Shown one piece after another: positions 5,437-41,294 of a DNA stretch of 41,294 bases. The notes under the pieces were generated by a model, which saw only the letters and a list, made by a program, of their open reading frames with translations, was not told the origin of the DNA and did no database searches. Position numbers and translations under genes: made by a program. How positions within the stretch are numbered: position 1 is the stretch's first letter; each line of letters opens with the position of its first letter. This DNA is from a virus (lineage: Duplodnaviria > Heunggongvirae > Uroviricota > Caudoviricetes): IMG/VR virus record IMGVR_UViG_3300033074_000010, positions 1 to 41,294 of that record; one strand, written 5' to 3'.

Positions 5437-5457
5437 AGCCCCGAAAGGGGCTTTCTT
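5437..5457 (+). terminator. terminator-like hairpin
   Basis: Stem AGCCCC/GGGGCT with GAAA loop followed by TTCTT. Confidence 0.5.
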
Positions 5458-5462
5458 ATAGT

Positions 5463-6539
5463 ATGCTATTAACTTTAGCGCCACAGGGTTTATCTATGAG
5501 CTTACTTACATCTCTAATCAGCCACCAGATATGGCTGCAACGCACCGCATCCGGTGAAGTGAAAGGCCTCGCACCGTTCATTAAGGAGATGCGGGACGAA
5601 ATAAAACGGCAGGTTCTGTTATTCGGCGACGACGGGCGAAGCTCGCGCCGACTGAATAAATTGTTACGCGACCTTGAAGAAGCGCTAACCGGACTTACAG
5701 GCGACTGGCAAACAAAGCTGACAGAAGACCTTAAGGAACTGGCGGCGTATGAGGCGGAGTGGAACGTAAAGACGCTGACAGCTAACGTAGACGCGGAATT
5801 TGTCACGCCTACCGCGGAACAGGTGTGGGCCGCTGCCGAGTTTCAACCTCTGTCGCTAAGTGACAAGCCCGTTGACTTCACCAAGCTGATGTCAGGCTGG
5901 GGTGAAGCGGAGGTCGCGCGCCTTGTAACTGGCGTTAAGATGGGCTTTGTGCAAGGCCAAACCACACGGCAGATTGTTAAAGAAGTAGTTGGTAAAGGCG
6001 GCCTGGCTGACGTATCAGAGAAACACGCCGCTACAGTAATCCGCACCGCGCTGTCCCACGTGTCCAACGAAGCCCGTAATGAGACATACCGCCAGAACGA
6101 CGACATCATCGAGAAATACGAATGGGTGTCAACGCTGGACAGCCGCACCAGTACGATTTGCAGAGCCAGAGACGGAATGACGTGGGGAATCGGTAAAGGG
6201 CCAATGCCCCCTGCCCATCCGAACTGCCGGTCGTGCACGGCGCCCGTAATTAGCTCGGAGTTCGACTTCCTCGATAAAGGCGCAAAACGTGCGGCTAAGG
6301 GCGCGGACGGAGGTACTCAGGTAAGTGCGGACACCACCTATTACGAGTTCCTGAAACAACAACCGGCATGGTTTCAGGACCAGGCGCTCGGCCCTGTTCG
6401 CGGTAAGATTTTCCGTAACAGCGGTATATCGCCGGAAGAGTTTCGCGTAATATCTGTAGATGGTTTCGGTAATCCGCTGACGCTTAAGCAGATGGCGGAA
6501 CTCGATAAACGTGTTGCTGATTATCTGAAAGGGGATTAA
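5463..6539 (+). CDS. head morphogenesis / minor head protein (putative)
   Basis: 358-aa ORF after portal, gene-order analogy to SPP1 gp7 / Mu F-like; alternative ATG at 5496. Confidence 0.55.
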   Translation: MLLTLAPQGLSMSLLTSLISHQIWLQRTASGEVKGLAPFIKEMRDEIKRQVLLFGDDGRSSRRLNKLLRDLEEALTGLTGDWQTKLTEDLKELAAYEAEWNVKTLTANVDAEFVTPTAEQVWAAAEFQPLSLSDKPVDFTKLMSGWGEAEVARLVTGVKMGFVQGQTTRQIVKEVVGKGGLADVSEKHAATVIRTALSHVSNEARNETYRQNDDIIEKYEWVSTLDSRTSTICRARDGMTWGIGKGPMPPAHPNCRSCTAPVISSEFDFLDKGAKRAAKGADGGTQVSADTTYYEFLKQQPAWFQDQALGPVRGKIFRNSGISPEEFRVISVDGFGNPLTLKQMAELDKRVADYLKGD

Positions 6540-7000
6540 TGATGGGCTTTTTCAAAGTAACTGATGTGCCGTCGCGTCGCGTAGTCCAGTACGCTCGTGT
6601 GTCTGGCTCCGGTGAGAACGTGGTATTTATTGAAGATGAAAGTGTACTGGGTACACCAGTAGACGATATGCCGTTTGCGGACAAGACTGGTATTGCGCTG
6701 CCTGCGGCAGGTATGCTTTACGAGATTCCGTATCTGGCGGACGCTGGCGACGTGTATTTCTCTGCACAACCACAGGACGTCGAACTGGCAGACGGCAGCG
6801 CCACTATCACTGTCGAGGTTAAGGCGGGCAAAGCACCATACGCGCTGACCTGGTACAAAGACGGTAAGGAAGTGGTAAACGCCCCGGAAGAGGCTTTGTC
6901 TCTGACGGTTAATGCGGTGGGTGAATACTTCGTTAAAGTTACTGATGCCGATGGTGTAGAGGCCGTAAGCAAAGCGGCGAAGGTCACTAAGCCAGAATAA
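6539..7000 (+). CDS. hypothetical structural protein with Ig-like C-terminal region
   Basis: 153-aa ORF; C-terminal segment (ATITVEVKAGKAPYALTWYKDGKEV) resembles Ig-like domains. Confidence 0.4.
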   Translation: MMGFFKVTDVPSRRVVQYARVSGSGENVVFIEDESVLGTPVDDMPFADKTGIALPAAGMLYEIPYLADAGDVYFSAQPQDVELADGSATITVEVKAGKAPYALTWYKDGKEVVNAPEEALSLTVNAVGEYFVKVTDADGVEAVSKAAKVTKPE

Positions 7001-7006
7001 ACTGAA

Positions 7007-7025
7007 GCCCCGAAAGGGGCTTTTT
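7007..7025 (+). terminator. rho-independent terminator
   Basis: Stem GCCCC(7007-7011)/GGGGC(7016-7020), GAAA loop, T5 run. Confidence 0.65.
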
Positions 7026-7089: not shown

Positions 7090-7118
7090 TTGACTTTTCA
7101 CCAAAAATGTGCTAAGCT
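7090..7118 (+). promoter_or_regulatory. sigma70-like promoter (extended -10)
   Basis: TTGACT(7090-7095), 17 nt, TGcTAAGCT(7110-7118); 16-bp perfect palindrome AACTATTCGAATAGTT (7076-7091) overlaps the -35. Confidence 0.55.
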
Positions 7119-7121
7119 CCA

Positions 7122-7230
7122 CCTGAGCTTGTGAAGTATGAACAAGCGACCGCGGCACGGCAGGTAACGGAGCCGGACGTTAAGTCCGAGTGTAGTTACG
7201 CTGACGCGTTCGGAAGGGCCATACTCTATT
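7122..7230 (+). ncRNA. candidate structured RNA / cis-regulatory leader, copy A (family unassigned)
   Basis: No ORF of 60 aa or more; 5' 34 nt identical and 3' ~31 nt near-identical to 36852-36963; conserved hairpin GCTTGT-9nt-ACAAGC. Confidence 0.4.
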
Positions 7231-7297
7231 GCTTGTGTAAAAAGTAACTGGTTTACTGAGATTACGCCGTTTCTATGTTTAAATGATAAGGACTAGC

Positions 7298-7324
7298 GCC
7301 CCGCTTTAAGGCGGGGCTTTACTT
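7298..7324 (+). terminator. terminator-like hairpin (weak U tract)
   Basis: Stem GCCCCGC(7298-7304)/GCGGGGC(7311-7317) followed by TTTACTT. Confidence 0.35.
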
Positions 7325-7341
7325 ATCGAGAAAGGGGAAAC

Positions 7342-7728
7342 ATGAATCTTAAAGCAACTGTCGTAGCAGGAGCATGTTTCATCATCCTGTTATATGTACA
7401 CGGCTACTTTCAATACCGCAGCGGCTGGAACGAAGGCCGGGCGAATCTCGTTTCGCAGCAACAGCAGAAAGCACAGGCTGAGTTAGCGAAGAAAACACAA
7501 CGGCAGCAGCAGGATGAATCAAAGGCCGCGGCCGCCGACAGCGAAGGCAAGACGAAATCAGAGGTGATTACCCGTGAAGTCGTTAAGTACATTAAAACAC
7601 CTGGTCGCAGCGTGTGCACTTTCGACGATGCTCGCGTCCTGCTCAAGTCCCGCGCCGTCGCAAACGCCAATTCCATCCCCGGATACGACGATGATGCAGC
7701 CACCGTGCAAGCTGGCACCACCAAGTAG
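7342..7728 (+). CDS. i-spanin (Rz-like), putative
   Basis: N-terminal TM helix then charged coiled-coil-like region; contains embedded +1-frame lipoprotein ORF. Confidence 0.55.
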   Translation: MNLKATVVAGACFIILLYVHGYFQYRSGWNEGRANLVSQQQQKAQAELAKKTQRQQQDESKAAAADSEGKTKSEVITREVVKYIKTPGRSVCTFDDARVLLKSRAVANANSIPGYDDDAATVQAGTTK

Positions 7729-7837
7729 CGATGCTGACGAGGATTTAGCTATCGACGTTCAGAACGCCGAATGCGTACGGCAACTGAGACTGAAAGTGTT
7801 CATGTTGCAGGATTACGTGCGGAATATTCTGGAATAG
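7574..7837 (+). CDS. o-spanin (Rz1-like lipoprotein), putative
   Basis: GTG start after GAGGTGA; lipobox LASC; Pro-rich mature region with MMQPP; overlaps the Rz-like ORF in another frame and extends past it. Confidence 0.55.
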   Translation: MKSLSTLKHLVAACALSTMLASCSSPAPSQTPIPSPDTTMMQPPCKLAPPSSDADEDLAIDVQNAECVRQLRLKVFMLQDYVRNILE

Positions 7838-7916
7838 TTGCCTTGTGTGTTGGAATAATTTATTCTTGACATGTAAATCCGGGAGGCCCGGATTCCAACG
7901 TCCAGGGGACATACTG

Positions 7917-36819: not shown

Positions 36820-36848
36820 TTGACTTTTACTGAGAAATATGGTAAGCT
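36820..36848 (+). promoter_or_regulatory. sigma70-like promoter (extended -10)
   Basis: TTGACT (36820-36825), 17 nt, TGgTAAGCT (36840-36848); same hexamers as promoter at 7090-7118. Confidence 0.55.
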
Positions 36849-36851
36849 CGT

Positions 36852-36963
36852 CCTGAGCTTGTGAAGTATGAACAAGCGACCGCGGTGCGCGGCAGGCGAA
36901 ACGAGCACGTCTCGACGTGTGGAGTGAGCCTCGCTGACGCATTCGGAAGGGCCATAGTCTATT
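36852..36963 (+). ncRNA. candidate structured RNA / cis-regulatory leader, copy B (family unassigned)
   Basis: Paralogue of 7122-7230; no ORF of 60 aa or more on + strand; identical 5' 34 nt and near-identical 3' block. Confidence 0.4.
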
Positions 36964-37118
36964 ATAATTCCCCGCCTAAATATCTAAGTTATTGATTTGC
37001 CGTAGGTCAGAACCGCAAGCTCACTCACTCACTCTTGGTGCCTTCGGCACCACGTTCGTTTCGTTTCGCTCGCTACCCCATTAAACAAAAGAATCACAAC
37101 GGCAACGTAACTAATCTC

Positions 37119-39675: not shown

Positions 39676-40109
39676 CTACTATCGCGTTCGACGGAAGGAC
39701 CATGGCCTGTGATACCCGAGTAGCCGGGGACCACATTTACAACACAGATACCAAGATATATGAGAACGAGTTTGTTGTTATCGGTGTGGCGGGTAATGCT
39801 GAAGCTGGTATCCTTTTAGTGAGGGACGATGGCATTTTAGTACCTAAGCATTATGATTTTGATTTCTCTGCTTTGGTGTACGTGAAAGACACGGAAAAGG
39901 TGTATAAAGTCGCATTTTATAAATCATGGGATTGTGCACTTAGTTCAGTTATTCCGATTGCTGATAGCTTTGCCGCCGTCGGCTCTGGTGCACCATATGC
40001 ACTAGCGGCTATGTATTTAGGCCATACAGCGACACGTTCTGTAACAGTAGCCACCCAATTCGACACCAACACCGGCGGCAAGATTATTACCAAACAACTA
40101 TTAGGATAA
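39672..40109 (+). CDS. HslV-like / proteasome-type Ntn-hydrolase peptidase (putative)
   Basis: N-terminus MTTIAFDG (Thr after initiator Met, as in HslV MTTIV); GSGAPYALAA matches HslV GSGGPYAQAA; 145 aa. Confidence 0.55.
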   Translation: MTTIAFDGRTMACDTRVAGDHIYNTDTKIYENEFVVIGVAGNAEAGILLVRDDGILVPKHYDFDFSALVYVKDTEKVYKVAFYKSWDCALSSVIPIADSFAAVGSGAPYALAAMYLGHTATRSVTVATQFDTNTGGKIITKQLLG

Positions 40110-40123
40110 TTCCTACCCGTGGT

Positions 40124-40163
40124 ATCCTCCAGTTACTGCATACTTAATACGCACCTGGAGGAT
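40124..40163 (+). promoter_or_regulatory. inverted repeat sequestering holin ribosome-binding site
   Basis: 9-bp arms ATCCTCCAG (40124-40132) and CTGGAGGAT (40155-40163), 22-nt loop; right arm contains GGAGGA 6 nt before the TTG start at 40169. Confidence 0.4.
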
Positions 40164-40168
40164 TCATC

Positions 40169-40477
40169 TTGGATAAATTTACTGAAACAGTGACGGGGTG
40201 GCTTCTCGCTGCCGCACTGGTCGGTGGATTGGTCGGACTAAGACAACATAAAAAGTCTATATCCGGGCCGATTGACGGACTGGTATTTCTTCTCACCGGC
40301 TTCGCGTGTGCTATTTTCGGCGCGCCTCTTGCCGCTCAATGGTTTGGAATCACTGGTGAGCGCGAGATAGCTGGCCTCGGATTCATCATTGCCATTCTCT
40401 GGATGCCAATCTATTCCCGCCTTTCTGGCATCGTATCTGGCGGCGATATTGCCCGCCCAGGAGGACCTCATGACTGA
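40169..40477 (+). CDS. holin (putative, three TM segments)
   Basis: 102 aa with three hydrophobic helices; TTG start; immediately upstream of endolysin block. Confidence 0.5.
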   Translation: MDKFTETVTGWLLAAALVGGLVGLRQHKKSISGPIDGLVFLLTGFACAIFGAPLAAQWFGITGEREIAGLGFIIAILWMPIYSRLSGIVSGGDIARPGGPHD

Positions 40478-40742
40478 GCTATTCTGGTTTGTCACAATGC
40501 TTTCAATGGGCGCTTCGTCCCTGTTCAACGTGTACAATGAACGCGTGGACGACGGGCTGTTCGGGCGTGTTCTCTATATCCTGACTGCTATCGTCTGTGC
40601 CGCCGGATGTATTCACCTGTTACAGGGCAGCATGTCACCCACGCTGCCTGAGACATTAATCACATTAGTTGCGCTGCGCCAGATTCGTCAGGCGTGGCTG
40701 TCGTACGGAGGACATAAGCGTGTCTCGAAACATTTCAGATAA
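40470..40742 (+). CDS. membrane protein, holin/antiholin-like (putative)
   Basis: ATG 40470 after GGAGGA, overlaps upstream stop; two hydrophobic helices; track ORF 40389..40742. Confidence 0.45.
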   Translation: MTELFWFVTMLSMGASSLFNVYNERVDDGLFGRVLYILTAIVCAAGCIHLLQGSMSPTLPETLITLVALRQIRQAWLSYGGHKRVSKHFR

Positions 40743-41205
40743 TGGATTGCATTTCACTGCTGCATTCGAGGGATTCCGCGGAACTGCGTATCGCGCTACG
40801 CCGAACGAGAAGTACCTGACTATTGGCTACGGGCATTACGGGCCTGACGTAACTCCAGGCAAGACCATCACTCCCGGGCAAGGCCTCCTGTTACTGAATC
40901 GTGATATGGCTAAGGCTGTAGCCGCGGTTGACGCAGCAGCACACCATTCACTGACACAGGCGCAGTTTGATGCTGTGTGCGACCTGGTCTATAACGCTGG
41001 TGCTGGCGTGATTGCGTCTACTACGGGCACGGGCAAGGCCCTGCGCTCAGGAGATATTGCAACACTGCGTGCCAAGCTGGCGCGGTTCATCAATCAGAAC
41101 GGCAAACCGTTACTTGGCCTGCGTCGCCGTACCGCAGGACGTCTGGCATTGTTCGACGGTAAACCGTGGCAGGAGGCTGAGGCTATTGGGAGAGCCGTTA
41201 AATGA
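40720..41205 (+). CDS. endolysin, GH24 lysozyme (P22 gp19 / T4 e-like)
   Basis: Catalytic region EGFRGTAYRATPNEKYLTIGYGHYG; C-terminal LLGLRRRTAGRLALF resembles P22 lysozyme; GTG 40720 7 nt after GGAGGA (track ORF begins TTG 40669). Confidence 0.8.
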   Translation: MSRNISDNGLHFTAAFEGFRGTAYRATPNEKYLTIGYGHYGPDVTPGKTITPGQGLLLLNRDMAKAVAAVDAAAHHSLTQAQFDAVCDLVYNAGAGVIASTTGTGKALRSGDIATLRAKLARFINQNGKPLLGLRRRTAGRLALFDGKPWQEAEAIGRAVK

Positions 41206-41294
41206 TGGACGAATACGAAGGCATTTAGTAAAATTACTTCCACGCTGCTTGTGCTTGCATACTAAGCCCTGGTAAACCCGAAGCAGCAGCCCAA

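Follow-up and report, generated by a model that had tools for sequence, protein, structure and literature searches.

The stretch of DNA analyzed here (the window) is 41,294 nucleotides long and, at about 41.3 kb, represents a complete genome of a Kagunavirus (Guernseyvirinae) with ~94% nucleotide identity to the coliphages BUCT789 and K1H. Near its left end lie two overlapping genes that a first-pass annotation had proposed to be a spanin pair. The genes and their translation signals, both Shine-Dalgarno sites being read from the sequence, are as follows.

7333 to 7338, plus strand: Shine-Dalgarno sequence AGGGGA of the i-spanin gene, 3 nt 5' of its ATG
7342 to 7728, plus strand: i-spanin gene, ATG start, 128 amino acids
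7561 to 7566, plus strand: Shine-Dalgarno sequence GAGGTG of the o-spanin gene, 7 nt 5' of its GTG and within the i-spanin coding sequence
7574 to 7837, plus strand: o-spanin gene, GTG start, 87-aa precursor, +1 frame relative to the i-spanin gene
7574 to 7642, plus strand: signal peptidase II signal of the o-spanin, with lipobox LASC encoded at 7631 to 7642 and Cys23

The longer ORF was described in the first-pass annotation as encoding an N-terminal transmembrane helix and a charged helical region, and both were found. Its product begins with a hydrophobic stretch (residues 1-23; 19-aa Kyte-Doolittle mean of 1.88) in which the inner-membrane anchor occupies approximately residues 3-23, and a helical region rich in Gln, Lys and Ala comes next. 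Since Lys4 precedes the hydrophobic stretch, an N-in/C-out orientation is implied, and the protein has one periplasmic Cys, C92. A single-sequence AF2 model places a continuous helix at residues 3-63 (pLDDT 75-95), spanning the anchor and the first periplasmic helix, and gives the C-terminal half a pLDDT below 50. In the i-spanin of K1H, which is 90% identical to this one, a coiled coil was reported at residues 33-66 (Kongari Table S3, PMC6139136), and the corresponding Shine-Dalgarno site is marked in Table S1 of the same work. The protein matched phrog_2536 ("Rz-like spanin") over its full length with an E-value of 3e-56, and is 90.6% identical to K1H gp06 (YP_009168838, "Rz-like spanin") and 66% identical to its Jersey counterpart; tblastn found matches in 626 phage records. 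These matches are to spanin families and not to a structural protein, homology to which had been named at the outset as a reason to abandon the proposal.

The second ORF shares 155 nt with the i-spanin gene and runs 109 nt past its end, in agreement with the earlier description of a frame that extends beyond the outer one. The N-terminus of its product reads MKSLSTLKHLVAACALSTMLAS/CSS. It has K2 in its n-region and, with Cys23 as the lipobox cysteine, conforms to PROSITE PS51257, the rule for lipoproteins. LASC is the correct lipobox, as had been claimed, and the lack of a lipoprotein signal that would have told against the proposal is not seen under this rule. Cys23 would be the lipid-modified first residue of the predicted mature protein, and it aligns with C22 of the K1H, S102 and Jersey homologues. 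An alternative lipobox, VAAC (Cys14), was considered and rejected; its hydrophobic core comprises only four residues and it does not align with Cys22 of the homologues. The residue at +2 is Ser rather than Asp, so that there is no inner-membrane retention signal, and this predicts sorting by the Lol system to the inner leaflet of the outer membrane. All signal and membrane-segment assignments made here rest on the PROSITE rule and on hydropathy.

The mature o-spanin would comprise 65 amino acids. It has the Pro-rich body with MMQPP that was noted earlier, with nine Pro residues, all of them in the first 32 positions, and the Cys residues of the precursor are at positions 14, 23, 45 and 67. Single-sequence AF2 modeling predicts a signal helix (residues 4-23), a disordered Pro-rich linker (24-54) and a confident C-terminal helix (55-86) that is amphipathic; the models of both spanins are of low overall confidence (mean pLDDT 62-64). 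The GAGGTG site upstream of the GTG is conserved in K1H, BUCT789 and Golestan. The protein matched two PHROGs annotated "Rz-like spanin", phrog_1267 (3e-18) and phrog_5672 (4.5e-30), and is 89.7% identical to K1H gp07 (also "Rz-like spanin") and 67% identical to the Jersey protein, with tblastn matches in 665 phage records.

Two-component spanins were recognized here by the features set out by Summer et al. 2007 and Kongari et al. 2018. The i- and o-spanin genes are adjacent in that order on one strand in an overlapped arrangement; the i-spanin has an N-terminal membrane helix, the o-spanin has a lipobox and Cys without Asp at +2, and periplasmic Cys residues (C92, C45 and C67) are available for predicted homotypic disulfides. 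Kongari et al. 2018 (BMC Bioinformatics 19:326, PMC6139136) define a single "Jersey" family of i-/o-spanins in the overlapped class, whose members include Jersey, SETP3, SETP13, K1G, K1H, K1ind1-3, HK578, SSL-2009a and others. The family is characterized by a 155-bp overlap and by constant Cys45 and Cys67 in the o-spanin, with a "separated" variant (8-bp overlap) in FSL_SP-031, and the o-spanins of K1G and K1H are given as 87 aa with a 21-aa signal, the start and overlap being as in the window (PMC6139136, Tables S1 and S4). The pair studied here agrees with this family in its 128-aa i-spanin with a single periplasmic Cys, its 87-aa o-spanin in the +1 frame with Cys45 and Cys67, its 155-bp overlap, its sequence (~90% identity to K1H and about 65% to Jersey) and its position between head-decoration and scaffold genes. 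The differences amount to few substitutions and nothing of substance; for example, the lipobox is LASC in the window and LSAC in K1H, and the extra Cys14 in the signal peptide is also found in K1H and K1G. Based on these observations, we assign the two genes to the two-component spanin of a Kagunavirus, of the "Jersey" spanin family, with a probability of about 0.93.

Databases and the literature already record this gene pair, the family to which it belongs, the overlap and the unusual placement in the head module. The RefSeq record of K1H annotates both orthologues as "Rz-like spanin" and notes "overlapping gene", and GenBank records from 2010 name the orthologues "putative spanin". Scans of both proteins against Pfam and NCBIfam gave no spanin family above cut-off (the best Pfam match, DUF2514, had an E-value of 0.0065 and fell below its cut-off), so that recognition came from PHROGs only. 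Our search of the experimental literature on the "Jersey" family found no complementation, lysis-defective mutant or lipid-labelling result. The paper on KL1 and AH2 mentions K1H for its structural proteins only. The spanin result is of little importance beyond correct annotation, and the proteins themselves leave no novelty.

The position of the pair relative to the other lysis genes required a correction. The holin and endolysin functions had been placed at 40169-41205, and three genes were found there.

40169 to 40477, plus strand: holin gene, 102 aa (phrog_2359 holin, 2.4e-32; K1H gp46, annotated "holin")
40470 to 40742, plus strand: second holin or antiholin gene, 90 aa from the ATG at 40470 (phrog_2508 holin, 2.3e-34; K1H gp47)
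40720 to 41205, plus strand: endolysin gene of the phage lysozyme family (PF00959, 5e-28; PHROG endolysin families; K1H gp48)

The endolysin is of the soluble type, without an N-terminal SAR helix; its GTG start was placed by analogy with K1H, the longest ORF beginning at 40669. The first-pass annotation put the spanins 33 kb from this cassette; that figure holds in window coordinates only and is an artefact of where the genome was linearised. Segments of the circular K1H record are colinear with the window: its holin-endolysin region corresponds to 40092-41190, and the sequence just 3' of its endolysin gene to position 75. The alignment therefore indicates that the window is a complete genome linearised right after the endolysin gene. 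Measured around the circle, 89 + 7341 nt (~7.4 kb) separate the endolysin stop codon from the start of the i-spanin gene, which is downstream on the same strand; the corresponding distance in K1H is 7.55 kb.

The claim that the spanins sit between head genes was borne out, the pair being flanked by a Hoc-like decoration gene (6539-7000) and a scaffold gene (7917-8543). A nucleotide search with 1.2 kb around the pair matched 300 phage records, with Escherichia phages BUCT789 (95.3%), ULINTec2, K1H and other Kagunavirus as the best matches. In six of six relatives checked for position (K1H, BUCT789, Jersey, Pantoea phage AH01, Klebsiella phage VLCpiS11a and Serratia phage Otaku), the spanins have head-morphogenesis and Hoc-like decoration genes on one side and scaffold and major capsid genes on the other, and in the Dhillonvirus GeorgBuechner the pair is placed after the minor capsid gene. 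To judge from these gene orders, the head-module position is conserved across Guernseyvirinae and Dhillonvirus. The separation of spanins from holin and endolysin genes was already remarked in the 2019 genome announcement of phage Schulenberg, and it is also evident in the Golestan paper, where the holins and endolysin are ORF66-68 and the spanins ORF7-8. These data support the view that the spanin genes form part of the head module and are genetically apart from the holin and endolysin genes.

With such a location, a membrane protein and a lipoprotein might serve some purpose other than lysis, such as superinfection exclusion, receptor masking (compare the T5 Llp and Cor lipoproteins) or morphogenesis. 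In addition to the placement among head genes and away from holin and endolysin, such a role would fit the lack of Pfam Rz or Rz1 membership and the terminators that flank the pair in several relatives, in the manner of an autonomous "moron" cassette. However, a type II membrane protein obligately paired with an overlapping +1-frame lipoprotein, with conserved periplasmic Cys in both, is the spanin signature, and T4 provides a precedent for spanin genes that are unlinked (pseT.3/pseT.2; PMC6139136). Moreover, the genome encodes a holin and an endolysin and contains no other candidate for outer-membrane disruption: we found no second spanin candidate 3' of the endolysin gene (41206-41294 and 1-2000, across the circular junction) or elsewhere in the genome. 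A non-lysis role is therefore very unlikely, and the genome can be read as encoding all three predicted steps of lysis (holin, endolysin and spanin), the spanins being in the head module as in its relatives.

Both halves of the pair are kept in 14 of 14 genomes compared, from phages of Escherichia, Salmonella, Klebsiella, Serratia and Pantoea. Each has a protein with a transmembrane domain followed by an ORF, in the +1 frame or downstream, with a hydrophobic signal and Cys, and the i-spanin always carries a single periplasmic Cys and the o-spanin a pair of them (C92; C45 and C67 conserved). Eleven of the o-spanin lipoboxes are canonical and three are LNGC, and 8-nt-overlap variants occur in GRNsp27, St162 and AH01.

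These comparisons also bear on the length of the second product. It could be argued that only a short ORF of 47 aa is made from an internal ATG at 7694 (MMQPPCK...), which would not be a lipoprotein; SETP13, Golestan and S102 do annotate a 47-48-aa product, and phrog_5672, a family 47 residues long, aligns with residues 41-87. Against this, the signal-peptide part upstream of that ATG retains its signal and lipobox Cys in all 14 genomes even though identity there is only 41-49%, and the GTG is preceded at 7 nt by the GAGGTG Shine-Dalgarno sequence. In the relatives with an 8-nt overlap, an ATG stands right before the signal peptide, and the 87-aa form is the one curated by Kongari et al. (PMC6139136). 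We consider the short product extremely unlikely to be the only one, and favor translation of the full-length lipoprotein precursor. This bears on correct annotation, since many GenBank records of related phages carry the truncated 47-aa o-spanin without its lipoprotein signal.

That both frames are genuine genes was examined by codon position, using the variable sites across eight genomes of like architecture and a binomial p. In the segment that encodes the i-spanin only, 48 of 99 variable sites fall at position 3 of the i-frame (p = 1.3e-3), and in the non-overlapped segment that encodes the o-spanin only, position 3 of the o-frame holds 21 of 33 (p = 3.5e-4); within the overlap the i-frame is dominant (29/60 variable sites). 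The third-position bias in each frame indicates that both are translated and under purifying selection. We used these tests and conservation in place of the PROSITE lipobox rule, which is weak alone and was uninformative as a stand-alone significance test, being passed by six ORFs of the window against a mean of 2.9 in triplet shuffles. The same figures are what would favor the view that the second frame is open, and has a lipobox, by accident within a genuine gene for a membrane protein, but the o-frame bias beyond the overlap, the 665 phage records with tblastn matches and the 86-97% identity of the C-terminal 36 residues across Kagunavirus and Jerseyvirus leave that reading next to no probability, and we regard it as effectively refuted by the conservation data.

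The o-spanin is predicted to be translated from the internal GTG, which has a Shine-Dalgarno site of its own and lies in the +1 frame relative to the i-spanin gene. By analogy with lambda Rz/Rz1 and T4 PseT.3/PseT.2, we predict the following for the action of the pair. The inner membrane would hold the i-spanin and the outer membrane the lipidated o-spanin, and the two would bind through their C-terminal parts to give periplasm-spanning complexes threaded through the peptidoglycan, which C92, C45 and C67 could link by homotypic disulfide bonds. The peptidoglycan is expected to cage these complexes until the holin frees the endolysin (40720-41205) to degrade it. Once uncaged, the complexes could move laterally and collapse, bringing about fusion of the inner and outer membranes and removing the last barrier to phage release.

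Two features upstream of the pair bear on the transcriptional route by which the spanins are expressed from inside the head cluster.

7090 to 7232, plus strand: sigma-70-like promoter followed by an RNA-like element of ~105 nt (copy A), read from the sequence
7298 to 7325, plus strand: terminator-like hairpin GCCCCGC-TTTAA-GGCGGGGC, then TTTACTTA, found in a hairpin scan; the hairpin proper spans 7298 to 7317

The first-pass annotation suggested that the spanins are co-transcribed with late structural genes. The pair and the scaffold gene are on the same strand, and no U-run terminator occurs between 7837 and the scaffold gene; a conserved hairpin (CCGGG-N3-CCCGG) follows 7837 without a U-run and is succeeded by the scaffold ribosome-binding site, which makes read-through into the head genes plausible in this genome. 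By contrast, in St162, AH01 and GeorgBuechner reverse-strand genes follow the spanins and set them apart from the scaffold gene, and a true terminator is present there in St162 and AH01. On the upstream side, the terminator-like hairpin at 7298-7317 lies 24 nt 5' of the i-spanin ATG, and with TTTACTTA included the element ends 17 nt before the ATG, just ahead of the ribosome-binding site. The hairpin is GC-rich and conserved in Kagunavirus, and Jersey and PK2 keep it by compensatory changes. The hairpin and the i-spanin gene are too close for a promoter to fit in between, so spanin mRNA would need read-through. Overall, co-transcription of the spanins with head genes is plausible.

Farther upstream, the plus strand between the endolysin and the spanins holds terminator-like hairpins at 2013-2028, 5437-5452 and ~7005-7022, in addition to the one at 7298-7317, and several sigma-70-like promoter matches as well. 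Given these intervening hairpins and promoters, the holin-endolysin and spanin modules probably belong to separate transcription units. Of the candidate promoters upstream, the one closest to the spanins consists of TTGACT (7090-7095), a 17-nt spacer and TGcTAAGCT ending at 7118. The spanins are probably expressed late together with the head genes, from transcripts that start at this promoter-like site (7090-7118) or farther upstream and read through the hairpin. Published transcription maps of Guernseyvirinae were sought in the literature, and nothing relevant turned up.

The RNA-like element is a feature apart from the spanin pair, and it is the sole part of the locus with potential novelty. 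It was found directly upstream of the pair, as the first-pass annotation had it. A second copy (copy B, 36820-36963), 78% identical to copy A, is located at a divergent early promoter region beside an HTH gene. The two copies share an invariant hairpin (GCTTGT-N9-ACAAGC), a long hairpin and a conserved tail; the tip of the long hairpin differs in sequence between them with pairing retained. A terminator-like hairpin occurs ~70 nt past each copy, giving predicted RNAs of ~200 nt for both. Matches to the element were found at 224 places in 181 phage records, so that some records must have more than one copy, and mostly no annotated feature underlies the match. Rfam searches of the whole window at the gathering threshold, and of both copies at E-values up to 10, yielded nothing credible. 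RNAalifold on nine copies gave only two base pairs in which both partners had changed in a compensating way, so that covariation support is weak; the tip of the variable hairpin is out of register in the alignment. The MFE z-scores were only -1.4 to -1.7, and these data are no more than suggestive of an RNA structure.

The put RNAs of HK022 offer a comparable logic for a leader that acts in cis as an antiterminator. It is conceivable, if rather unlikely, that the promoter at 7090-7118, the ~105-nt RNA and the hairpin at 7298-7317 constitute such a cis-acting antiterminator leader or, alternatively, a 200-nt small RNA with regulated read-through. If true, this upstream unit would govern when and how strongly the spanin and head genes are expressed, without dependence on the holin and endolysin genes.

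The o-spanin was likened in the first-pass annotation to lambda Rz1, and the likeness holds as functional analogy but not as sequence homology. A Pfam scan at E-values up to 1 recovered neither PF03245 (Phage_lysis, Rz) nor PF06085 (Rz1), and BLASTP of the i-spanin against lambda Rz gave no alignment. The match to lambda Rz1 (38 residues, E = 0.007) is compositional only, covering the signal peptide and the Pro-rich stretch with MQPP. In the absence of sequence homology, the pair is a functional analogue of Rz/Rz1 only. It shares with Rz/Rz1 the predicted topology (a type II protein in the inner membrane, a lipoprotein in the outer membrane), the location of the o-spanin in the +1 frame of the i-spanin gene, a Pro-rich o-spanin with an MQPP motif, and periplasmic Cys residues available for disulfide-linked dimers. 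In contrast, the Rz1 gene is embedded in Rz, whereas the o-spanin gene described here is overlapped and runs on for 109 nt past the end of its partner; no secondary structure is predicted for Rz1, whereas this o-spanin has a predicted C-terminal helix; and Rz/Rz1 end the holin-endolysin cassette, whereas this pair is not adjacent to it and lies ~7.4 kb from the endolysin.

Other known systems match on some of these points. Like LysB/LysC of P2, the pair is overlapped, with an o-spanin gene that begins inside the i-spanin gene and ends beyond it, but LysB/LysC belong to another sequence family and their genes are inside the lysis cassette. The spanin genes of T4, PseT.3/PseT.2, are likewise unlinked from the holin (t) and endolysin (e) genes, and PseT.2 is an o-spanin larger than Rz1 with a predicted C-terminal helix (PMC6139136, Fig. 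8 legend). T4 differs in that its spanin genes are separated and of another sequence family, and in that it is a myovirus whose holin and endolysin genes are also scattered. Taken together, the C-terminal helix of the o-spanin and the separation of the pair from the lysis cassette resemble T4 PseT.2 more closely than they do Rz1.

Just 5′ of the i-spanin gene (7342-7728, + strand), the window carries an unannotated unit that is present in two copies:

7090-7325, copy A, ending immediately before the i-spanin gene
36820-37062, copy B

The unit opens with a sigma-70-like promoter (TTGACT-N17-TGnTAAGCT), which is followed by ~105 nt of conserved, structured, RNA-like sequence and, ~70 nt beyond that sequence, by a terminator-like hairpin; the RNAs predicted from it are ~200 nt long. 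Its RNA-like part has an invariant GCTTGT-N9-ACAAGC hairpin, a second, long hairpin whose tip is variable yet paired, and a tail, TTCGGAAGGGCCATA(C/G)TCTATT. A search of Rfam gave no match for the unit. It was found at 224 places in 181 phage records, indicating that some records hold more than one copy, and mostly no feature is annotated at the match. The unit may produce a small RNA or act as a leader in read-through/antitermination.

Further features concern the genes and intergenic sequence around the spanin pair, in the window or in another phage:

6539-7000, Hoc-like head-decoration gene (153 aa, Ig-like domain), upstream of the spanin unit
7838-7916, strongly conserved intergenic segment that separates the o-spanin gene from the scaffold gene
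1640-2311 of the Salmonella phage MB78 locus (X87092), homologue of the scaffold gene at window 7917-8543

The Hoc-like protein matches phrog_3945 at 2e-86, its Pfam Ig/BiPBP_C matches are weak, and older records label its gene 'tail protein' or 'fibritin'. The conserved segment contains GGAATAATTTATTCTTGACA, a CCGGG-N3-CCCGG hairpin and GTCCAGGGGACATA(C/T)TGA. Even Serratia phage Otaku has a recognisable version of the segment's hairpin and ribosome-binding-site part; this conservation suggests that a site for regulation or RNA processing lies 5′ of the scaffold and capsid genes. In MB78, p11.5 is a spanin homologue, and the 1995 record lists two products, p26 and p28, from the gene downstream of it, attributing both to 'ribosomal frame shifting', the site of which it marks.

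The window represents a whole genome cut directly 3′ of the endolysin gene (junction 41294/1), and the circular map of the close coliphage relative K1H is continuous across this point. As a consequence, the distances between features near the window's two ends are misleading.

Several GenBank and RefSeq records give the o-spanin as a 47-48 aa protein that starts at an internal ATG and is without a lipoprotein signal. Three such short calls are equivalent to window 7694-7837:

SETP13 locus, 1253-1396
Golestan locus, 1253-1396
S102 locus, 1250-1396

The o-spanin is not annotated at all in the records of BUCT789, VLCpiS11a, Otaku and PK2. It appears that phrog_5672 (47 positions) was built from the shortened calls.

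Comparison of window 7574-7728 with six loci from relatives (L011, L012, L006, L008, L007 and L005) revealed that the length of the i/o overlap differs inside a single homologous spanin family. Kagunavirus and Jerseyvirus share an overlap of 155 nt, against 143 and 134 nt in the Klebsiella and Serratia phages compared, 98 nt in Dhillonvirus and, counted from the ATG start, just 8 nt in GRNsp27, St162 and AH01. No mention of the intermediate lengths (143, 134 and 98 nt) was found in the available portion of the paper on the 'Jersey' spanin family (Kongari et al. 2018, PMC6139136), which already treats the contrast between overlaps of 155 and 8.
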